From contig JAKAIX010000001.1 in NCBI GenBank assembly GCA_021814165.1, positions 77,623 to 141,622 of the forward strand: a DNA stretch of 64,000 nucleotides, read 5' to 3'. Below the pieces are notes generated by a model. The model saw only the letters and a program-made list of their open reading frames with translations. It ran no database searches and was not told the origin of the DNA. The translations under genes were made by a program, and so were the position numbers. Shown piece after piece: positions 187-12,878 of this stretch; within the stretch, counting starts at the first letter, position 1; each line of letters begins with the position of its first letter. The stretch is from a bacterium (GTDB lineage Bacteria > Patescibacteriota > Minisyncoccia > UBA6257 > GWB1-50-10).

Positions 187-558
187 ATGATTCAAGAACG
201 TTCTATTTTAAAAGTTGCTGATAACAGCGGGGCAAAAATCGTCCGCTGCTTCAGAGTTCTTGGAGGAGGAAGGAAACGATATGCCGAGGTAGGGGATATC
301 ATTATCGCATCGGTACAGGTTGCGGAACCGAGGAAACAAATCAAGAAGAAGGACATCGTCCGTGCGCTCGTTGTGCGGCAGAGGAAACCGCTTCGCCGCT
401 CTGACGGTTCGTATGTTCGTTTCGGCGATAACGCCGTGGTTATCATTGATAAAGACAAAAAAGAACCGAAAGCGACCCGCATCTTTGGTCCGATTCCACG
501 GGAAATAAAAGCGTTCGGCTACGACGCGATAACGTCGCTTGCGGAAGAGCTTGTGTAA
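187..558 (+). CDS. rplN: 50S ribosomal protein L14
   Basis: MIQERSILKVADNSGAKIVRCFRVLGGG... is the canonical L14 N-terminus, in operon context. Confidence 0.95.
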   Translation: MIQERSILKVADNSGAKIVRCFRVLGGGRKRYAEVGDIIIASVQVAEPRKQIKKKDIVRALVVRQRKPLRRSDGSYVRFGDNAVVIIDKDKKEPKATRIFGPIPREIKAFGYDAITSLAEELV

Positions 559-562
559 CACT

Positions 563-868
563 ATGAAATTGAAAAAAGGAGACACAGTAAAATTTCTAAT
601 CGGTAAGGATCGCGGGAAGACCGGGAAGGTGCTTCGCGTTGACACGAAGGAAGGAATGGTTCTTGTCGAGGGATTACACATGTTTAAAAAGCACGTGCGA
701 CCGAAGCGGCAGGGAGATAAAGGGGAGGTAGTATCGCTCGCGAGGCCGGTTAACGCTTCCAATGTGATGTTGGTGTGCCCTTCTTGCCACGCTGCAACGA
801 GAATTGGGCGCAAAATTTCGGACGGCGGGAAGAGCAGGATATGCAAAAAGTGCAAAGCAACAATATGA
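563..868 (+). CDS. rplX: 50S ribosomal protein L24 with a C-terminal C4 zinc ribbon
   Basis: MKLKKGDTVKFLIGKDRGKTGKVLRV... is a KOW-type L24. The C-terminus CPSC...CKKC is unusual for bacterial L24. Start taken at the internal ATG at 563, just after the L14 stop. Confidence 0.85.
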   Translation: MKLKKGDTVKFLIGKDRGKTGKVLRVDTKEGMVLVEGLHMFKKHVRPKRQGDKGEVVSLARPVNASNVMLVCPSCHAATRIGRKISDGGKSRICKKCKATI

Positions 869-1356
869 CGGATACAAAAAAACAGACATACGCGATTGAA
901 AAAATCGTGGTCAATACGGGATTAGGGAGAGCGAGCCAACAGGCGCAGTTCGAGGATAAGATACTTCCGGAGATCGAGAAGGAATTAGCGACGATAGTCG
1001 GTCAGAAGCCCTCGCGCCGCCAGGCAAAGAAGTCCATCGCGGGTTTCAAGAGCCGTGCGGGACAGATTATAGGACTCGCGGCGACGCTTCGCGGTTCCCG
1101 TATGAATGATTTTCTTGAACGCCTCGTAAATCTCGTTCTTCCCCGCGTGAAAGATTTCCGCGGCCTGTCGGAGAAAAACGTGGATGCAAACGGTAATCTT
1201 AATATCGGCCTAAAGGAACAGAGCGTATTTCCTGAAATAGATCTTGAAAAGTCCAAGATGACGTTCGGGATTCAGATAACCATCGTTCCCAGGAAGAAAG
1301 AGAGAGACGCCGCAATTGCTTTCTACCGTCGTTATGGAGTACCATTGAAGAAATAA
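865..1356 (+). CDS. rplE: 50S ribosomal protein L5
   Basis: ...[12 protein letters not shown]...[10 protein letters not shown]... are L5 motifs. The ATG overlaps the L24 stop (ATGA). Confidence 0.9.
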
Positions 1357-1357
1357 T

Positions 1358-1543
1358 ATGGCGAAGAAATCGGTCATCGCGAGAGCAAAAAAGAAACCGA
1401 AGTTCAGCACCAGAGTAGTTCTCCGGTGCTTTCGTTGTGGCAGAAAACGCGGTTATATACGCGATTTCAATCTTTGCCGCATTTGTTTTCGTGAATTGGC
1501 GAGTCGCGGGGAAATCCCGGGGGTAAAAAAAGCGAGTTGGTAA
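1358..1543 (+). CDS. rpsN: 30S ribosomal protein S14 type Z (zinc-binding, 61 aa)
   Basis: [61 protein letters not shown] is the short C4 S14. Confidence 0.93.
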
Positions 1544-1544
1544 C

Positions 1545-1919
1545 ATGAACTACACCGATTTTGTCATAAAAGTTAAGAATGCGAAGACCGCCGGAAAATC
1601 AACGGTGAAATCCGATGCCACAAAGATGAATAAGGCAATCGTCGAACTTCTTGTAACGCGCGGTTTTGTTAAGAGCGTGGAAGTAAAAGGGAAGGGGACG
1701 AAAAAATACCTCGAGATCGATCTTGGAGGGAAAAAACGGATTCATGCCATAACGTTTTTGAGTAAACCTTCGCTGCATCGCCATGCCGGATACAAAAATT
1801 TCAAAAAAGTGAAAAATGGATTTGGAATGCTTGTCGTTTCGACTCCGAAAGGAATTATGACCGGAGAAACAGCGAGAAAGGAGAAAGTCGGAGGAGAGTT
1901 GCTCTTTGAGATCTGGTAA
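1545..1919 (+). CDS. rpsH: 30S ribosomal protein S8
   Basis: 124 aa with S8-like end ...GMLVVSTPKGIMTGETARKEKVGGELLFEIW. Operon position fits. Confidence 0.9.
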   Translation: MNYTDFVIKVKNAKTAGKSTVKSDATKMNKAIVELLVTRGFVKSVEVKGKGTKKYLEIDLGGKKRIHAITFLSKPSLHRHAGYKNFKKVKNGFGMLVVSTPKGIMTGETARKEKVGGELLFEIW

Positions 1920-1920
1920 C

Positions 1921-2475
1921 ATGAGTAAAATAGGAAAAATGCCAATAACTGTACCGGAGGGGATTACCGTCACGATTGACGGTGGGCTTATCCAGGTAAA
2001 AGGCGCAAAAGGGGAACTCACAATTCCGCTTCTTCAGGGGATTAAGGCATCGATAAACGACTCGACGCTTCTCTTTGAACCGCAGAGCGCCTCGAAACAG
2101 GCGAGAAGCAATTGGGGAACCCAGCGCGCGCTCGTTCAGAATGCCGTCCAGGGACTCACGAAGGGATTCGAAAAAGGACTCATCCTCGAAGGGGTCGGCT
2201 TTCGCATCACGAAAGAAGGCGAAGGGCTTACTTTGAATTTGGGATTCTCGCACCAAGTGAAATACGAACCGCCCAAAGGCATCACGTTCGAGGTGGAAAA
2301 AAATTCCCGGCTTAAGATAAGAGGGATCGATAAAGCGCTCGTCGGTCAGGTTGCCGCCCAGGTTCGTTCGCTCAAGAAACCGGAACCCTACAAAGGAAAG
2401 GGATTCAGATATGACAACGAAATATTGCGAAGGAAAGTCGGGAAGAAAGCGGGTACGAGCGGCTCCGCGGCATAA
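1921..2475 (+). CDS. rplF: 50S ribosomal protein L6
   Basis: MSKIGKMPITVPEGITVTIDGGLIQVKGAKGEL... is an L6 N-terminus. Confidence 0.92.
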   Translation: MSKIGKMPITVPEGITVTIDGGLIQVKGAKGELTIPLLQGIKASINDSTLLFEPQSASKQARSNWGTQRALVQNAVQGLTKGFEKGLILEGVGFRITKEGEGLTLNLGFSHQVKYEPPKGITFEVEKNSRLKIRGIDKALVGQVAAQVRSLKKPEPYKGKGFRYDNEILRRKVGKKAGTSGSAA

Positions 2476-2484
2476 CGCATCACC

Positions 2485-2847
2485 ATGAATAAGACAAAAC
2501 AACTCAATATAAAAAGAACAGCAAGAAAGAGAAGGGTCCGTTCGAAAATTCGAGGAACGGCGGAAAAGCCGCGCCTTTCGGTATATCGGAGCAATACTCA
2601 TATCTATGCCCAACTTATTGATGACGCGAAGAGGGCTACGATTGCTTCCGCGTCTTCCCTTGAAATCAAGCAGGGAACGAAGAAGATAGCGAAATCGGAA
2701 ATTGCAAAAACAGTGGGTGCGGAACTCGCGAAGAAAGGGAAAGCGGCTGGAATCAAGACTGCGGTGTTCGATCGCGGAAGTTATCGGTATCATGGTCGCG
2801 TAAAAGCGCTCGCGGAAGCGGTGCGCGAGGGAGGTATTAATTTCTAA
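2485..2847 (+). CDS. rplR: 50S ribosomal protein L18
   Basis: ...[34 protein letters not shown]... is an L18 signature. Confidence 0.92.
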
Positions 2848-2851
2848 AACT

Positions 2852-3343
2852 ATGGAAAGACAATCGCGTCCGATGCGGGCGAAAAAAAGCGAATTTCAGG
2901 ACAAAGCGCTCGAGATACGAAGAGTGACCAGGGTTGTCGCGGGCGGAAAACGTTTCAGCTTCCGTGCGACCGTCGTGGTAGGCGACATGAAAGGAAGAGT
3001 GGGAGTCGGAATCGCAAAAGGACTCGATGTTGCGGCAGCAGTCGAAAAAGCAAAGCGTCAGGCCCAAAAAGACATGGTGCGCGTTCCCCTAAAAGAGCAG
3101 CGAACGATTCCTCACGATGTCGAGGCGAAATACAGCGCAGCAAAAATCAGAATTAAACCGGCACAGAAAAACCACGGCCTTATCGCGGGTGGCGCTTCCC
3201 GTATCGTGTTGGAGCTTGCGGGAGTAAAGGATGTTTCCGCAAAAATACTCGGACGAACGACGAATAAGCTCACGAATGCGATGGCAACACTTGAAGCACT
3301 TCGCATGCTGGAAAAAGAACAACACGAAATGCAAAGCGAATAA
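2852..3343 (+). CDS. rpsE: 30S ribosomal protein S5
   Basis: ...RVTRVVAGGKRFSFRATVVVGDMKGRVGVGIAKG... are the S5 dsRBD and C-terminal domains. Confidence 0.93.
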   Translation: MERQSRPMRAKKSEFQDKALEIRRVTRVVAGGKRFSFRATVVVGDMKGRVGVGIAKGLDVAAAVEKAKRQAQKDMVRVPLKEQRTIPHDVEAKYSAAKIRIKPAQKNHGLIAGGASRIVLELAGVKDVSAKILGRTTNKLTNAMATLEALRMLEKEQHEMQSE

Positions 3344-3803: not shown

Positions 3804-5075
3804 ATGAACAAATTCCTCCAAATTTTCAAAATACCGGACTTGAGAAAGAAGGTCCTTATGGTGCTCTTTCTTCTTTTCGTATTTCGTCTTCTTGCCGCGA
3901 TTCCGATCCCGGGCATCGACGCCGTTCGTCTCCAGCAATTTCTCTCCTCGAACGAATTATTCGGATTTCTAAACATTTTTTCGGGTGGAGGCCTTTCAAA
4001 CCTCTCGATTATGATGCTTGGCGTAGGTCCTTATATCACGGCAACCATCATTATGCAGCTTCTCACAATCGTATTTCCGAAATTAAAAAAGGCGTACTAC
4101 GAAGAAGGAGCCGCGGGACAAGCAAAATTCAACCGCATCTCGCGATATCTCACCGTTCCGCTCGCGATGTTTTCGGGGTACGGTTTTCTGAATCTTCTCG
4201 CATCCCAGCGGGTATTGCCGCATCTCTCATTTCTCGAGCTCGTGAATAACGTCATTATCATCACGGCGGGCAGCATTCTTATCATGTGGATAGGAGAACT
4301 CATTTCCGAGTACAAGATAGGAAACGGCATCTCCCTTATTATCTTTGCGGGTATTGTGAGCCGCCTTCCGCAGGAAGCCGCGGCAGCGTTTTTTAACTAC
4401 AATCCGGATATGCTGCCAACCTACATTGCTTTCATATTGTTGAGTATTATCGTGATCGCGGGAGTCGTGTTCGTGAATGAAGGGGAGCGTAAAATTCCCG
4501 TGTCATACGCAAAACAAGTCCGCGGTATGAAGATGTACGGCGGAGTATCGACGTATTTGCCGCTTCGGGTGAATCAGGCGGGCGTGATTCCAATCATCTT
4601 CGCAATTTCTCTCCTCCTTTTTCCTCAATTCTTCGCACAGATGATTTCGATTGCCTCTCCGTCTCTTTCGCTCAAATTGAATGCATGGGTGACCGGTTTT
4701 TTCAACAACGTCCCGCTTTACAGTTTGATCTACTTCATTCTCGTCGTGCTTTTTACCTACTTCTACACGGCAATTACATTTGATCCGGGAGAAATCTCGA
4801 AGAACCTTCAGCGAAACGGGGGATTCATTCCCGGAATCAGACCGGGACAGGCAACCACCGACACCATCGCGAAAATTACGCGTCGTATTACGCTCTTCGG
4901 CGCTCTCTTTCTCGGTGCCATTGCCATCCTCCCGAACATCACGCAGATTGTGACCGGTATCCAGGCGCTCACGATTGGCGGCACGGCGCTCCTCATCGTA
5001 GTCGCCGTTGCACTCGAAATCATGAAACAAATAGAATCCCAGCTTACGGTAAGGGAATACGAGGGGATTTTCTAA
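3804..5075 (+). CDS. secY: Preprotein translocase subunit SecY
   Basis: 423-aa multi-TM protein starting [29 protein letters not shown]...; SecY follows L15 in the operon. Confidence 0.93.
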
Positions 5076-8713: not shown

Positions 8714-9606
8714 GATTTCGCTATGGAAAACGTCCCGTGTAATTCCTCAATCTTTCCCTCCAATATAAGAAGAGAAAGCTCCTGATTCACTCGTTGTGTC
8801 TCAAGATGGGTCATTTCCGAGATGTTGTCAACCGTAAGAGGCGAAGAGGCCTCTTTGATGGCCCGGAAAACCGGAGATGTTTCTTTTTCCTCATGGCCCC
8901 TCTCCCGTTCTTTTTCCGGAACGGCAAGCACGCCTTCGTATGCCTTCAAGGCTTCTTCAAGATCGTGCGCGATGTCCTTTGCGCTTGTCACAAGTCGTGC
9001 TCCCTCCCGTATGAGCATGTGCGATCCCTGATAATTCCTGTGACGGACCGGTCCGGGCACCACGAAGACTTCGCGCCCTTGCTCGAGCGCGAAACGCGCC
9101 GTCGCAAGCGATCCCGATCTCATGGGCGCTTCGACGACGATTGTCGCGATGCTCATTCCGCTTATGATCCTGTTTCGTTCGAGGAATTGATGCCGTAGGG
9201 GAGCGATACCTTCCGGGTATTCCGAGCAGATAGCGCCGCTTTGCGCAACAATCGACTCCGCAAGATGTTCATGGAGCAGGGGATACACGGTATCGAGGCC
9301 GTTCGCAAGAACCGCAATCGTATTTCCTCCTCCCTGAAGCGCGCCTTCGTGCGCCGCGCCATCGATGCCGATTGCAAGTCCGCTCACGATGGTAATGCCT
9401 GCTTTCGCGAGATCATAGGCAATCTGTTTTGCGATAAGTTTCCCGTCTTGTGTCGCTTTCCTCGTACCGACGATTGCAACGCATATGCACGGGGAAGGAA
9501 ACGAGCCTTTTACGAAAAGCGTCGCGGGAGGGCTCGGTATTTCACGAAGCAGTTTCGGATACTCCTCCTCCGAATATGAGATGTGATGAATAGGAGAAAT
9601 CGGCAT
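8710..9606 (-). CDS. dprA: DNA processing protein DprA/Smf
   Basis: YPKLLREIPSPPATLFVKG...GTRKAT...GLAIGIDGAAHEGAL... is the DprA Rossmann domain. Start is set at the internal Met at 9606 because the longer ORF would overlap tRNA-Ile. Confidence 0.85.
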   Translation of the reverse strand: MPISPIHHISYSEEEYPKLLREIPSPPATLFVKGSFPSPCICVAIVGTRKATQDGKLIAKQIAYDLAKAGITIVSGLAIGIDGAAHEGALQGGGNTIAVLANGLDTVYPLLHEHLAESIVAQSGAICSEYPEGIAPLRHQFLERNRIISGMSIATIVVEAPMRSGSLATARFALEQGREVFVVPGPVRHRNYQGSHMLIREGARLVTSAKDIAHDLEEALKAYEGVLAVPEKERERGHEEKETSPVFRAIKEASSPLTVDNISEMTHLETQRVNQELSLLILEGKIEELHGTFSIAKS

Positions 9607-9638
9607 AACAATAACGATATCCAAAAACTGCCTTATTT

Positions 9639-9713
9639 TGGTGGGCATGGAAGGAATCGAACCTTCGACCTCTGTCTTATCAGGACAGCGTTCTACCACT
9701 GAACTACATGCCC
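9639..9713 (-). tRNA. tRNA-Ile (anticodon GAT), CCA encoded
   Basis: Reverse complement is GGGCATGTAGTTCAGTGGTAGAACGCTGTCCTGATAAGACAGAGGTCGAAGGTTCGATTCCTTCCATGCCCACCA. All four arms pair and the anticodon loop is CTGATAA. Confidence 0.9.
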
Positions 9714-9975
9714 GTATTCTTTATAAATCCATCTTTTACTATCTTATCAATATAATCCTTTCGCTTTAGTTTTTTCAACCTCAATTCTATTTTCCTGGCA
9801 ATCTACAAGCTTGGAAATTTTTGAACAAAAACTAATTTTTTTTCGTCCATTCTCCTTGTTGTTTGAGTATGACCGTGCTGGTGTTGATACCATCTTCTAT
9901 AAATATCATTAGTACTTCCAATGTACAATCTATTGTTCGTACCATCTTTAATAATATAAACAAAGCCATCCATAG

Positions 9976-10051
9976 GCGTTCTACCATCCCGACGCGCTTC
10001 GCGGTCGGGACTCCGACCCCCGAAGGGGCGTCGGAGTTGAACTACATGCCC
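9976..10051 (-). pseudogene. Partial tRNA-Ile copy (positions 1-26) with a 50-nt double-hairpin insertion in the D-loop
   Basis: Reverse complement is GGGCATGTAGTTCA + [ACTCCGACGCCCCTTCGGGGGTCGGAGT CCCGACCGCGAAGCGCGTCGGG] + ATGGTAGAACGC. It then diverges with no anticodon or T arm. Confidence 0.7.
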
Positions 10052-10079
10052 AAATTACGATTTTGAGTGTAAGTGAATT

Positions 10080-10298
10080 CTACTTCTGAATCAAGTTTAA
10101 TTTTTCAAACTCCTGGATATTAAATTGAAGATGCGTCGGAGCGACGCTCGGCGCCTCAAGTGCGCCTTCCAAACTCGACCCCAAGAATACGATTCCGTAT
10201 ATCACGAATGCGCCCGTGATGAGCACCATCGCCGAGGCAAGCACGATGAAAAACATATTCTTGGAAGCCAGACGAATTGTTCTTATCTTCTCACGCAT
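10080..10298 (-). CDS. Hypothetical small membrane protein (72 aa, 1 TM)
   Basis: ORF with hydrophobic core FFIVLASAMVLITGAFVIYGIVFLG, immediately downstream of the 10304-10828 gene on the same strand. Confidence 0.35.
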   Translation of the reverse strand: MREKIRTIRLASKNMFFIVLASAMVLITGAFVIYGIVFLGSSLEGALEAPSVAPTHLQFNIQEFEKLNLIQK

Positions 10299-10303
10299 GT
10301 TAC

Positions 10304-10828
10304 TTAGCGATAATACACCCGCCCCTTAAGCGTCATCGTGAACCGTCCCTCGTCGTTTCTTAAAGAGACGTTATCGATTGTATTCAGATATTTGAAGGTT
10401 TCCATCGCTTTGAGGAACGCGAGCGATGTCTTGGTGTCGCTTCCTCCAAGCGCGAGCGAAAATCCGATCGATCCCAATCTATCCTTCGTCGGTTGCGTTT
10501 CGCTGGTAAAGGAAAACCCGTAGGTTAACTGATACTGGTTCGCGAGCGTCTGAAGCGACTGATTAAGATCGATAAGATTGTCATACGAAGGAATAATCGC
10601 CTGAAGCACGCTTAAATAGTTCTTTGCCCTTGAGTTATATTGGGCCTCGAGAAGCGCCTTGTCGTACACTTTTGAGGTCTGACTCGCGAGCAATTGTCTC
10701 GCCTGGGTAATTTTCAGAAGGTACTCACTGATGTTGCTTTTAAAGAAAAAAATGCCCCATAACAGCGCGACGATGAGTATAAGTGCGACACCGAGGTCGA
10801 TCCAGAGGCGTTTTTTGAAACTGTCCAT
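10304..10828 (-). CDS. Hypothetical membrane-anchored protein (N-terminal TM, possibly PilO-like)
   Basis: Start chosen at MDSFKKRLWIDLGVALILIVALLWGIFFF. One TM followed by a ~150-aa soluble region with no clear catalytic motif. Confidence 0.5.
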   Translation of the reverse strand: MDSFKKRLWIDLGVALILIVALLWGIFFFKSNISEYLLKITQARQLLASQTSKVYDKALLEAQYNSRAKNYLSVLQAIIPSYDNLIDLNQSLQTLANQYQLTYGFSFTSETQPTKDRLGSIGFSLALGGSDTKTSLAFLKAMETFKYLNTIDNVSLRNDEGRFTMTLKGRVYYR

Positions 10829-10895
10829 GGCTCTCTTCCTATTATAGCGTACTCGGCTTGAACCCGCATCCGTCTCATCGTACACTATACGCACT

Positions 10896-10953
10896 GGGCC
10901 GTTAGCTTAGCTTCCGCCAGAGGCGGACCAGCCTTTGGCTGGGGTAAGAGCGC
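10896..10953 (+). pseudogene. Partial tRNA-Ala copy (positions 1-26) with a 32-nt double-hairpin insertion in the D-loop
   Basis: GGGCCGTTAGCTTAG + [cttccgccagaggcgg accagcctttggctgg] + GGTAAGAGCGC. The first 15 nt match the tRNA-Ala at 11196 exactly. Confidence 0.7.
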
Positions 10954-10959
10954 AACCTT

Positions 10960-11205
10960 ATGTTCTCTGTCTATGTCTTAAAAAGCCTGAAAAACGGGAA
11001 GAGATATATTGGGTATACGAGCAAACCTCCACAAGTAAGGTTAAAAGAACACAATAATGGTTCGAATGCATTCACCAAAAATAACAAACCATTTGTGTTG
11101 ATATATTCCGAACAGTATAGTAATAAAAGAGAAGCCATCCAGAGAGAGCACTTTCTGAAATCAGGGAAGGGGAGAGAATTTCTGGATAACAGTTTGGGCC
11201 GTTAG
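10960..11205 (+). CDS. Small standalone GIY-YIG nuclease-family protein (81 aa)
   Basis: VYVLKSLKNGKRYIGYTSKPPQVRLKEHNNG...NKREAIQREHFLK is a GIY-YIG/URI domain. Its TAG stop codon lies inside the 5' end of tRNA-Ala. Confidence 0.75.
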   Translation: MFSVYVLKSLKNGKRYIGYTSKPPQVRLKEHNNGSNAFTKNNKPFVLIYSEQYSNKREAIQREHFLKSGKGREFLDNSLGR

Positions 11206-11268
11206 CTTAGTTGGTAGAGCGCCTCGTTTGCAACGAGGAGGTCACCGGTTCGAATCCGGTACGGTCCA
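11196..11268 (+). tRNA. tRNA-Ala (anticodon TGC)
   Basis: GGGCCGTTAGCTTAGTTGGTAGAGCGCCTCGTTTGCAACGAGGAGGTCACCGGTTCGAATCCGGTACGGTCCA. G3:U70 pair present, anticodon loop TTTGCAA. Confidence 0.9.
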
Positions 11269-11412
11269 CATACAAAACCCCCGACCCCTGGTCTAGAAAA
11301 CCCTCGGTTTCCCACAGCCTTCCGACACAGGGGTTTTGCTTTTATTTTGCGAGGCAAAAAATGCTGAATCCGAATGGGTTTTTTGAGAGTATTGTAGGTT
11401 GAATCGCAACCA

Positions 11413-11913
11413 TTGATAAAATCCCGTTCTTGTTGGATAATTTTACAAACGATATACATGGGTAATTTCAATCTGTTCAATCTTGAAGTGCATTTTAAGC
11501 CAAGTTTCTCGTTACGCTTTCGAAAAAAGCGCCTTGATAAGGTATCAGCAAATATACTTTTTATTGATGATTCAGATTGCCCTGTGGTTGAAAACTTGAC
11601 CAAGGCTGGTTGGTCGGTAAAAAAGATCGACGATATCGTAAATGTTCAAGACGAAGAAATAAAACGAGCCGACATAGTTTTTGTAGATTACAAAGGTGTT
11701 GGTATCGACCTTTCAGAGGAAGAACAAGGAATTAGTGTGATAAAAGCTATTAAGAAAGCATATGGTGATTCCAAGAGAGTTATCCTATATTCCGCATACG
11801 GACATTTTAAGTTAAGCATGAACATGCGCGTCGCCGATAATCAGATGTCAAAAAACTCAGATACATTTGAATTTATCTCTATGATTGAATCTGAGTTAGA
11901 GAAAATTAAATGA
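11413..11913 (+). CDS. Single-domain response-regulator receiver (CheY-like) protein
   Basis: REC landmarks: NILFIDDSD (acidic pocket), ADIVFVDYKG (phospho-Asp), KRVILYSAY (Ser/Thr), HFK (Lys). AT-rich island. The true start may be an internal Met at 11458. Confidence 0.6.
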   Translation: MIKSRSCWIILQTIYMGNFNLFNLEVHFKPSFSLRFRKKRLDKVSANILFIDDSDCPVVENLTKAGWSVKKIDDIVNVQDEEIKRADIVFVDYKGVGIDLSEEEQGISVIKAIKKAYGDSKRVILYSAYGHFKLSMNMRVADNQMSKNSDTFEFISMIESELEKIK

Positions 11914-12878
11914 CATTTTATCGAAGAAAAAATACGGGAGGTGAGGTTACCGCTACCAACATTCCGGAAAACTTTGATATATCTAGCTACACCACAAAAG
12001 AATTTAATTTAGGAGATGGAAAAATTGAGTTCATCACTAACGACTTAGAACTAGTAAAAAGATCAAAAATTTTAAGGAAAGTTGTTGAAACAAGCGGTCC
12101 AATAGTTATTTCTATTCAAGATAATTTTATCAACCAAATAAAAGAGCACTCTCACACTCTAAAGAGACTCCAGGGGCAATTGAAACAAAAAATAGAGGGG
12201 GTTGTAGATTGCAAAAAATTTCCTAACAAGAACCACTCTGAGCAACGAGAGATTGTGTCTAATGAGATTAAGTCAGATGTTAAAACAATAGCTGATGTAT
12301 TGATTTATTTACGGAAAAGAATACTTGAAATAGATGCACATATTGCTAGTTTCGAAATTATTCATATGGGAGAAGAAATTCAACTTGATATACGACCGCA
12401 TAACATTCGAAATATCATTATTAACATCCTATATGCCTTTGAAGATGAATCCCGGGGCACATGGATTAAACCTAGTTTCCAATTCACGAATGAGCTCGCC
12501 GAAACGAATAAAATCAAACTAGACTATAAAACAGTTAATACAGCTTTCTATAATTTCTTTGATAACGCAATTAAATATATAAAACCGAGCTCTGATATAA
12601 GATTCTTTCTTTCATTTCAGGATGGAGAATTTAAATTATTAATAACGATGATCAGCTTGAGAATTGAACAAGAAGAACTAGCAAAAATATTTGACTTGAG
12701 ATATAGGGGTAAAAATGCTGAAAAAGTTGAAGGATTGGGTATAGGAATGTATGTCGTCAAGAAAGCGCTAGAATTAAATAGATTTTCTATCAAAGTCAAT
12801 CCTGATTACAGTCACATGGAACATTTTCAAGGTAAGCAATATATTCTCAATCAGTTTGAAATTTCTGGGAGGGTTTAA
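11910..12878 (+). CDS. Cytoplasmic histidine kinase (HisKA + HATPase_c) with ~90-aa N-terminal domain of unknown function
   Basis: H box EHSHTLKRL, N box FYNFFDNAIKYIKP, G2 box GLGIGMYVVKKALELN. Start overlaps the receiver stop (ATGA). Confidence 0.65.
   Translation: MTFYRRKNTGGEVTATNIPENFDISSYTTKEFNLGDGKIEFITNDLELVKRSKILRKVVETSGPIVISIQDNFINQIKEHSHTLKRLQGQLKQKIEGVVDCKKFPNKNHSEQREIVSNEIKSDVKTIADVLIYLRKRILEIDAHIASFEIIHMGEEIQLDIRPHNIRNIIINILYAFEDESRGTWIKPSFQFTNELAETNKIKLDYKTVNTAFYNFFDNAIKYIKPSSDIRFFLSFQDGEFKLLITMISLRIEQEELAKIFDLRYRGKNAEKVEGLGIGMYVVKKALELNRFSIKVNPDYSHMEHFQGKQYILNQFEISGRV

Follow-up and report, generated by a model that had tools for sequence, protein, structure and literature searches.

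Why should an intact tRNA gene be preceded by a second copy of its own 5' end, interrupted by hairpins and broken off after position 26? The question is raised by the tRNA-Ile gene of a 64,000-nucleotide (nt) stretch of a patescibacterial contig (JAKAIX010000001.1, positions 77,623 to 141,622), hereafter the window, and it arises again at a nearby tRNA-Ala gene. In both cases the ~260 nt between the remnant and the intact tRNA proved to be an open reading frame (ORF) for a single-domain GIY-YIG protein, and the same order recurs at many tRNA isotypes in related loci. The reading that we favour, with a probability of about 0.6, is that a compact selfish cassette has colonised the tRNA gene and displaced its 5' part, which is now seen as the fragment; in this cassette hairpins would guide a nuclease, by a logic like that of the Ssn nucleases. 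We regard the architecture as solid and the support for the mechanism as moderate.

Two tRNA genes of the window are each preceded by an interrupted copy of their 5' end

The elements of the two loci are listed below; A1 and A2 are the two subfamilies of the nuclease and of its hairpins that are described further on.

9639-9713, minus strand: intact tRNA-Ile(GAT), allele GGGCATG (ARAGORN; Rfam tRNA, 78.6 bits)
9704-9973, minus strand: GIY-YIG ORF, A2 subfamily, nonsense pseudogene of 88 codons (PF01541, E = 9.4e-16)
9976-9987, minus strand: rest of the tRNA-Ile remnant, ATGGTAGAACGC, positions 15-26, 11 of 12 identical, ending 2 nt before the ATG
9988-10037, minus strand: Ile double hairpin, 'CCGAC' type (A2), 50 nt, in the D-loop of the remnant (folding, family comparison)
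10038-10051, minus strand: 5' remnant of tRNA-Ile, positions 1-14, exact, one of two matches in the window
10858-10886, plus strand: putative host tRNA-Ala promoter, TTGAAC-17 nt-TACACT, 9 nt ahead of remnant position +1 (read by eye, below the scan threshold)
10896-10912, plus strand: 5' remnant of tRNA-Ala, positions 1-17, of which 15 are exact, then CT where the tRNA has TT (sequence comparison)
10913-10942, plus strand: Ala double hairpin TCCGCCAGAGGCGGA-CCAGCCTTTGGCTGG, canonical A1 type, 30 nt, single copy in the window (folding, covariation)
10943-10953, plus strand: rest of the tRNA-Ala remnant, GGTAAGAGCGC, positions 18-26 with one additional A, followed by the 6-nt leader AACCTT (sequence comparison)
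10960-11205, plus strand: GIY-YIG ORF, A1 subfamily, intact, 81 amino acids (PF01541, E = 7.5e-16)
11196-11269, plus strand: intact tRNA-Ala(TGC) (ARAGORN, Rfam)

The first 14 nt of tRNA-Ile (GGGCATGTAGTTCA) have two minus-strand matches in the window (9700-9713 and 10038-10051), which are the only ones, and the first 15 nt of tRNA-Ala match solely at 10896-10910 and 11196-11210; dinucleotide-preserving shuffles of the window gave 0.00 expected matches for either. The initial annotation of this DNA had described the upstream copy of tRNA-Ile as exact over positions 1-14 and near-exact over positions 15-26, and had recognised a tRNA-Ala fragment of the same layout (10896-10953, plus strand: the 15-mer, the 30-nt double hairpin and GGTAAGAGCGC); all of this was found again. 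It had also seen a 50-nt insert of two nested hairpins. Length and number are right, but hairpin 1 (ACTCCGAC..GTCGGAGT, 10010-10037, minus strand) and hairpin 2 (CCCGAC..GTCGGG, 9988-10009, minus strand) stand side by side, both inside the retained D-stem (DNA fold of -23.6 kcal/mol, z = -4.0). Each remnant is of the same allele as the adjoining intact tRNA, and neither cassette of the window has a 3' remnant. The other tRNAs found by ARAGORN (Leu, Val and Glu) lie elsewhere in the window, and comparison within the window disclosed no 5' copy upstream of any of them.

A scan with the sigma-70 consensus called no promoter upstream of either window remnant. The promoter-like stretch listed for tRNA-Ala, together with the host sequence upstream of it, is conserved in two syntenic relatives (L161 and L163, see below) up to the remnant or the hairpins. 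Because the conserved host sequence runs right up to position +1, the tRNA-Ala remnant is the original 5' end of the resident gene. The top sigma-70-like match of the region (9749-9778, minus strand; TTGAAA, 18 nt, TATATT, 10 of 12 positions) falls within the 3' part of the nonsense ORF, ~35 nt upstream of tRNA-Ile; it could be a promoter of this tRNA's own or a chance match in AT-rich sequence (5 found, 3.1 expected).

The intervening sequence encodes a single-domain GIY-YIG protein

The tRNA match does stop after position 26, as first described; what had been taken there for divergence is the beginning of a GIY-YIG ORF, which had gone unseen. The two ORFs score 58.6 and 58.3 bits against PF01541 (cut-off 22.6). 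Their ATGs lie 2 nt past the Ile remnant (9973, minus strand) and 6 nt past the Ala remnant (10960, plus strand). Both stop at a TAG that is supplied by tRNA positions 8-10 (U8-A9-G10; 9704-9706 at tRNA-Ile), so that ORF and tRNA overlap by 10 nt and the final three codons and the stop of the Ala-linked ORF are inside tRNA-Ala. PF01541 is the sole domain match of either protein, the chain ending directly after the catalytic domain with no second domain. The AlphaFold (AF2) model of the Ala-linked protein has a pLDDT of 94 and agrees with the beta-beta-alpha-beta-alpha fold of the superfamily, and its fold neighbours in Foldseek are the UPF0213 protein BH0048 (1ZG2), the Slx1 nuclease domain and the catalytic domain of I-TevI. 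NCBIfam returned just weak matches, to group I intron endonucleases, and the nearest PDB matches are UPF0213 proteins. Residues Y5, Y16, R27, H31 and E63 are invariant in the alignment of the A1 family.

Judged from its sequence, the Ala cassette looks functional and the Ile cassette appears to be in decay, its ORF being interrupted by a nonsense mutation (in-frame TAG, codon 57, 9803-9805) ahead of the catalytic E63. Since homologs hold a conserved glutamate in the column of this TAG, we regard the ORF as a nonsense pseudogene that likely arose by a GAG-to-TAG mutation. The same glutamate, together with the use of TAG as the terminal stop of both ORFs, led us to reject recoding of the stop codon.

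Several relatives in public gene calls, from both subfamilies (P0010, P0075, P0099 and P0175), carry N-terminal extensions such as ...VAQLAER... or ...GGSASGGK...; these are probably the upstream tRNA remnant and hairpins in translation, the starts having been called too far upstream.

The architecture recurs in two subfamilies and at many tRNA isotypes

The Ala-type protein has many relatives of ~80 amino acids: a scan of species-representative genomes with it gave at least 600 candidate stretches, at least 556 of which encode relatives. We compared 160 related loci, namely L001-L080 for subfamily A1 and L081-L160 for subfamily A2. The proteins of the two subfamilies are homologous over their full length, with 21% identity (hhalign probability 98.9%). 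A tRNA starts on the same strand no more than 120 nt past the stop of the intact ORF in 55/79 A1 and 75/78 A2 loci, and in 21 of these 55 and 25 of these 75 the tRNA itself supplies the stop, as the TAG of its positions 8-10. Among loci with an adjacent tRNA, a 5' tRNA copy with an insertion is present in 36/51 (A1) and 46/71 (A2), which makes 82/122 in total, and it begins at tRNA position 1 in 28 of the 36 A1 and 36 of the 46 A2 copies. This recurrence bears out the earlier proposal that a common mechanism, and not chance, lies behind the two fragments. The tRNAs concerned belong to at least 15 isotypes (Asn, Arg, Val, Thr, Ala, Ile, Lys, Phe, Met, Pro, His, Gln, Ser, Asp and Leu-adjacent cases), and the architecture was observed on more than 100 contigs that are independent of one another and stem from different studies; long contigs are among them, as is one complete chromosome (L074, CP181398). 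The ORF is intact in 157/160 loci, a proportion favoured by the way in which the loci were chosen (see below). In the literature searched, to which this absence is limited, we found no description of small GIY-YIG genes between a hairpin-interrupted tRNA remnant and an intact tRNA.

In a large share of the 160 loci the contig ends a few hundred nt or less from the cassette, which suggests that the cassette repeats break metagenome assemblies. The labels Gammaproteobacteria and Planctomycetia, given to the metagenome-assembled genomes (MAGs) of several contigs that resemble those of the candidate phyla radiation (CPR), look doubtful.

Each subfamily has its own type of double hairpin

The two nuclease subfamilies come each with their own hairpin type. 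The A1 insertion is exactly 30 nt long in 29 cases and has the consensus TCCGCC-NNA-GGCGGA followed by YCMGCC-TNN-GGCKGR. Covariation was assessed on 68 distinct A1 30-mers, selected on the invariant core alone. Standard pairs make up 99.4% of the pair cells, and double changes occur in 112 cells versus 40 in shuffles, a value that 0/500 shuffles attained; the signal collapsed in slid controls. Judged by this covariation, the hairpin pairing is under selection. The loop nucleotides A9 and T22 are invariant, so that the reverse complement shows the same pattern and both strands fold alike, and the Ala double hairpin of the window indeed folds identically on both strands. The A2 hairpins have stems of the form NNCCGAC/GTCGGNN, variable loops and, at times, nested hairpins (L081-L160); the two outer stem pairs of the CCGAC type covary.

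The hairpins accompany the ORF: 58/100 A1 hairpin pairs lie within 0-100 nt upstream of it, and 162 A2 hairpin matches fall in the bin from -100 to 0. That they form a discrete inserted element, as had been suspected, is upheld by the precise 30-nt insertion and by a case of presence and absence, L005 having one hairpin unit more than the related L010. Each type, A1 and A2, has one copy in the 64 kb, in both cases inside a tRNA remnant, and this single copy ruled out the candidate explanation that the hairpins are a genome-wide repeat like the repetitive extragenic palindromic (REP) sequences.

Remnants end a short distance outside the hairpins, on either side

Within the tRNA, the hairpin unit is placed, for example, after position 8, 12-13, 15-17 or 28-29, and one Ser locus has it in the T-loop; two units are present in some remnants. 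Wherever the unit sits (D-stem, D-loop, anticodon stem or T-loop), the tRNA tail past the last hairpin has a median of 8 nt in A1 and 9 nt in A2, and the leader before the ATG a median of 10-11 nt, which gives a fairly constant hairpin-to-ATG spacing of ~18-20 nt (median tail plus median leader). The window cassettes have tails of ~8-12 nt and leaders of 2-6 nt. Truncation after position 26, which the initial annotation had proposed as the common geometry, does not hold as a rule; what holds is an end a median of 8-9 nt after the last hairpin pair.

At least 10 A1 and 16 A2 loci (~20% of loci) also have a 3' remnant, 4-60 nt beyond the intact tRNA, in which 5-15 nt of tRNA (by our reading) are followed by a hairpin unit and by the remainder of the tRNA to its 3' end. 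On either side, then, the remnant stops close outside the hairpins, at a distance that is roughly constant. Within a locus, the hairpin copies on the left and on the right are near-identical, idiosyncratic loops included (L074, L081, L122, L125 and L131). There are also hairpins that have no ORF, hairpins that lie downstream of tRNAs, and hairpin units that lack a 5' remnant.

Tandem arrays were seen in two loci. L055 has, at 1828-2502, seven copies with a 103-nt period, each unit consisting of a short tRNA piece, a double hairpin and the rest of tRNA-Asn; in L044, at 1700-1953, a tRNA-Asn piece with a hairpin unit is repeated with an 86-nt period into the contig end.

Halves of a split tRNA can flank a different allele of the same tRNA

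Complementarity identifies, in some loci, the two halves of a split resident tRNA on the flanks of the ORF and of a different intact allele of the same tRNA. In L098 and L104, the 5' remnant GCCCTCG is complementary to the 3' remnant CGAGGGC, whereas the central intact tRNA-Arg(GCG) differs (GGTCCCG/CGGGATC). The same pattern of matching halves around a differing intact tRNA was found for tRNA-Asn in L032.

Syntenic relatives of the window were located via topoisomerase I (TopA), which is 76-85% identical. Their tRNA-Ile and tRNA-Ala sites compare as follows.

Window, tRNA-Ile: GGGCATG intact, 5' remnant with A2 hairpins, nonsense ORF
Window, tRNA-Ala: 5' remnant with A1 hairpin, intact A1 ORF
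L161 (TopA 83%), tRNA-Ile: GGGCGCG intact, without remnant and without nuclease gene
L161, tRNA-Ala: 5' remnant, different hairpins, third kind of 81-amino-acid GIY-YIG ORF reading 15 nt into the tRNA
L163 (TopA 85%), tRNA-Ile: GGGCGCG split, its 5' and 3' pieces around an intact GGGCATG (the allele of the window), with flanking 20-nt inverted repeats
L163, tRNA-Ala: solely CCGAC-type hairpins, ahead of a different tRNA-Ala allele
L165 (TopA 76%), tRNA-Ile: 5' remnant GGGTGCG, intact GGGCATG flanked by inverted repeats, possible decayed 3' remnant
L165, tRNA-Ala: remnant positions 1-21, 36-nt hairpin, positions 22-35, ahead of yet another allele

The orthologous tRNA-Ile site is thus occupied in the window and unoccupied in L161, and the cassettes or hairpins at the orthologous tRNA-Ala site differ between the window and the three relatives, and among these. 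The comparison of the tRNA-Ile locus to which the initial annotation had pointed is informative: the gene is intact and free in one relative and split around an incoming GGGCATG in another.

The tRNA-Ile genes nested in inverted repeats (L163, 4470-4610; L165, 4020-4145, minus strand) have repeats of 17-20 nt (e.g. CCCCGCACTAAAACAACGATA / TATCGTTGTTTAGTGCGGGG) and lie within the split tRNA-Ile without an ORF and without a double hairpin; they may represent a second kind of tRNA-in-tRNA insertion. In L163, a large serine recombinase gene (Resolvase/Recombinase/Zn_ribbon) and genes of the HTH and AAA kinds (330-3197) adjoin tRNA-Ala at its 3' end and suggest a separate integrative element; the allele of this tRNA, too, is not the one found in the window. 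In L161, ~150 nt between a 72-amino-acid gene and the unoccupied tRNA-Ile (4862-5016) contain an ORF-like tail (...AELMAAIQALIDKYMNT*), which the window lacks.

The ingredients of the cassette have precedents

SsnA binds its hairpin only as single-stranded DNA (ssDNA), cuts a few nt 5' of it and does not cut the reverse strand of its site; with its NTS in Neisseria it has been proposed to control DNA uptake or recombination, and it modulates transformation (PMC11893778, Chenal et al. 2025). From the oligonucleotide lengths quoted there, we estimate a cut ~7 nt from the palindrome; the tRNA remnants here end about as far from their hairpins. The Ssn and the cassette proteins are both single-domain GIY-YIG proteins of ~80-95 amino acids, with the catalytic residues at nearly equal positions (Y5/Y16/E63 here, Y6/Y17/E64 mutated in SsnA), and in both a GC-rich hairpin repeat flanks its own nuclease gene, different protein lineages having different hairpins. 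An Ssn system is marked by a protein of ~90-100 amino acids with a single domain and no DNA-binding domain, and by a 20-50-nt hairpin beside its own gene; the cassettes answer to this with proteins of 81 amino acids and 88 codons, with PF01541 alone, and with hairpins next to the ORF. In contrast to Ssn hairpins, those described here form a tandem pair with a two-fold symmetric pattern, are not dispersed (once per type in 64 kb) and always lie in a tRNA remnant; tRNA is nowhere mentioned in the Ssn paper (PMC11893778). The SRM search sequence, HGTCWYN(0-2)YYVSBRHN(0-5)WNVSBRGN(0-2)RNCYNB, gave 0 matches in the window and all 160 loci, and the NTS control matched.

A second comparison is with SegB of phage T4 (PMC2330249), the product of a free-standing GIY-YIG gene among tRNA genes, which has a site with a conserved tRNA motif and spreads neighbouring tRNA genes. 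Unlike the cassette nucleases, SegB acts on the duplex DNA of a competing phage, has no hairpin element, with no split or duplicated tRNA remnants described, and belongs to the homing endonucleases, which combine the nuclease with a separate DNA-binding domain (PMC3664794). The C-terminal DNA-binding domain that characterises I-TevI, I-BmoI and SegB is absent from the cassette proteins.

Double-hairpin elements (DHEs) were reportedly described in Allomyces mitochondria by Paquin et al. in 2000, and GC-rich palindromes flanking mitochondrial tRNA genes of Neurospora by Yin et al. in 1981 (both cited in PMC2800124). No dedicated nuclease is known to be tied to the mitochondrial elements. Like the hairpins here, they are short and GC-rich, consist of two adjacent hairpins and insert precisely without target duplication; their mobility was deduced from presence and absence in relatives, and in some genomes they are associated with tRNA genes. 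Two adjacent GC-rich stem-loops of 26-79 bp, inserted precisely and present or absent between relatives, define a DHE, and the 30-nt and 50-nt units, with L005 versus L010, answer to this definition. Unlike them, the mitochondrial elements, compared here by description, are organellar and dispersed in intergenic regions, introns and rRNA genes; many dispersed copies per genome were not found in the 64 kb, where each hairpin type has one.

Finally, integrative elements that target tRNA genes also insert in the gene and leave an intact tRNA at one junction and a partial copy at the other, but they measure kilobases, encode a recombinase of the tyrosine or serine type and, in most cases, duplicate the 3' portion of the gene (background in PMC9897764). 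The cassette measures ~0.3 kb, has the GIY-YIG gene as its sole ORF, no recombinase, a duplicated 5' part (positions 1-26) and a remnant interrupted by hairpins. Each ingredient is therefore of a known kind, whether selfish GIY-YIG nucleases, Ssn-hairpin pairs, SegB, DHEs or the partial tRNAs of integrating elements.

A model for the spread of the cassette

From one end to the other, the cassette consists of the tRNA promoter, tRNA positions 1 to ~14-17, the double hairpin, ~8-12 nt of tRNA, the leader, the ORF and the overlapping tRNA. We propose that this unit would be transcribed from the host tRNA promoter. RNase P releases tRNAs from their precursors, and its cut at tRNA +1 would part the mRNA from the tRNA. 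The nuclease would recognise its own hairpins as extruded or single-stranded DNA, as Ssn GIY-YIG nucleases do, and would cut a few nt outside them on each strand. The breaks would be repaired by recombination among tRNA-homologous segments, a repair that may copy the hairpin-ORF-tRNA unit into resident tRNA genes and duplicate the hairpin with ~8 nt on either side. The resident gene would be left in hairpin-tagged pieces beside a working copy, at times with the formation of tandem arrays, and the 5'-only form of the window could arise if the long direct repeats recombined and the 3' remnant was thereby lost. Since the cassette would bring a working tRNA and the resident copy would be broken, the host could not easily lose it. 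A site-specific nuclease cut had been among the mechanisms first suggested; the nuclease gene at the site makes it plausible, cleavage itself being argued by analogy.

A bolder form of this model is a self-propagating 'tRNA gene replacement' element, in which a mini-nuclease gene fused to a working tRNA gene lands in the resident copy of the same tRNA, splits it at a double hairpin via cuts ~8 nt outside on each strand and so renders the host dependent. We put this forward tentatively, with the odds somewhat against it.

Several points weigh against the model of a hairpin-guided cassette. Cleavage, strand preference and cut positions are argued by analogy, the hairpins do not fit the published SRM consensus (0 matches), and symmetric action is proposed from their two-fold pattern, whereas SsnA is directional. 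The likeness to the Ssn proteins of clade cd10448 is one of architecture, size and residues, and the nearest solved relatives are UPF0213 proteins. Hydrolytic nucleases do not join DNA, so that the joining of ends, with no transposase, would fall to recombination or repair by the host, and the first entry of a cassette into a new tRNA isotype is unexplained by the model. L032 has one hairpin variant on the left and another on the right. The import of a tRNA is shown in related loci only, because the window remnants match the adjoining allele and have no 3' counterpart. Last, the loci were chosen by protein similarity, which biases them towards intact ORFs, and many are short MAG contigs.

Alternative explanations

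Could the cassette never carry a tRNA at all? A unit of tRNA positions 1..k, hairpins, tail, leader and ORF might integrate upstream of a tRNA via the shared 5' segment, by single crossover or gene conversion, and duplicate only that segment, 3' remnants and foreign alleles being separate events. This would account for the window, where remnants match the adjoining allele and lack a 3' partner, and for most related loci, which hold a 5' remnant only. The pre-ORF unit of L032 starts just 8 nt before the hairpins, as a free unit would, and in L001, L019 and L037 the acceptor strand of the remnant differs from that of the tRNA, which fits a remnant travelling with the ORF. Yet the homology available for a crossover is merely 8-29 nt, and such a unit explains neither the complementary 5' and 3' halves around a different allele (L098/L104, L163) nor the near-identical left and right hairpin copies in one locus. 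We consider it the most serious competitor, with perhaps one chance in a handful.

A domesticated, host-serving role is improbable. The cassette would then control DNA uptake or recombination, or act as an RNA leader that stabilises or regulates mRNA and tRNA, the tRNA remnants being incidental. A gene for DprA lies near the cassettes in the window, and SsnA modulates transformation (PMC11893778); the 157/160 intact ORFs, the fairly constant distance of ~18-20 nt from hairpin to ATG and the position of the unit behind the putative host tRNA promoter fit such a role as well. The intactness of the ORFs is, however, biased by the choice of loci, and occupancy is patchy in close relatives, with different cassettes at the same site. 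The nonsense copy in the window, the arrays and the split genes are signatures of selfish turnover, and hairpins exist without an ORF and downstream of tRNAs. A host-serving role is possible as an added layer, though it does not explain the turnover.

Far less probable still is the remnant of a tRNA intron (group I or archaeal bulge-helix-bulge type), which the initial annotation had listed, or the integrase-mediated insertion of a larger element. A precise structured insertion inside a tRNA sequence does look intron-like, and integrating elements are known to leave partial tRNA genes behind (PMC9897764). Rfam, however, searched over 9000-12000 at E<=1, gave the two tRNAs plus noise and no ribozyme or other family, because of which ribozyme and intron readings were dropped. 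A ribozyme core or splice motif in an otherwise complete tRNA is what an intron would present; the copies here are truncated, an intact tRNA always follows, and the hairpin insert is merely 30-50 nt. Against an integrase, no recombinase gene accompanies the cassette, the 5' and not the 3' end is duplicated, and the total insert is ~0.3 kb.

Chance similarity or an assembly artefact, for which one could cite the conservation of tRNA 5' regions among isoacceptors and the frequent position of related loci at contig ends, has a negligible probability given that the 14- and 15-mers include the isoacceptor-specific acceptor strand, with 0.00 matches expected, and that the architecture stands on over a hundred independent contigs and a complete chromosome.

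We also set aside the idea that the tRNA remnant is an RNA guide and the hairpins its scaffold: such a guide would also target the cassette's own adjoining intact tRNA, the protein consists of nothing but a catalytic domain, and hairpin units without a 5' remnant exist.

Implications

If the model of a selfish, hairpin-guided cassette is right, it ties a very abundant but functionally anonymous class of ~80-amino-acid GIY-YIG proteins of uncultivated bacteria to a life style and a DNA partner. It would extend the recent concept of Ssn nucleases and their hairpins, proposed as ssDNA tools, to new pairs of protein and hairpin, and would explain partial tRNA genes 5' of tRNA genes, assembly breaks and odd N-terminal extensions in public gene calls. 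It would also point to a way in which essential tRNA genes pass from one lineage to another. The bolder form, if true, would amount to an addiction strategy on an essential RNA gene and to a driver of horizontal tRNA turnover in streamlined genomes with single-copy tRNAs, such as those of CPR bacteria.

A further palindrome of the window

The palindrome GAGGCC(G/C)GGCCTC is present at ~10 window sites (13468, 22190, 29625, 30038, 38238, 38275, 41688, 52114, 52337 and 60654), with 17 strand-matches at up to one mismatch versus 0.09 expected; one of these sites lies ~310 nt ahead of tRNA-Leu and another 24 nt ahead of tRNA-Val. The palindrome appears to be the dispersed REP-like repeat of this genome and is unrelated to the cassette hairpins.

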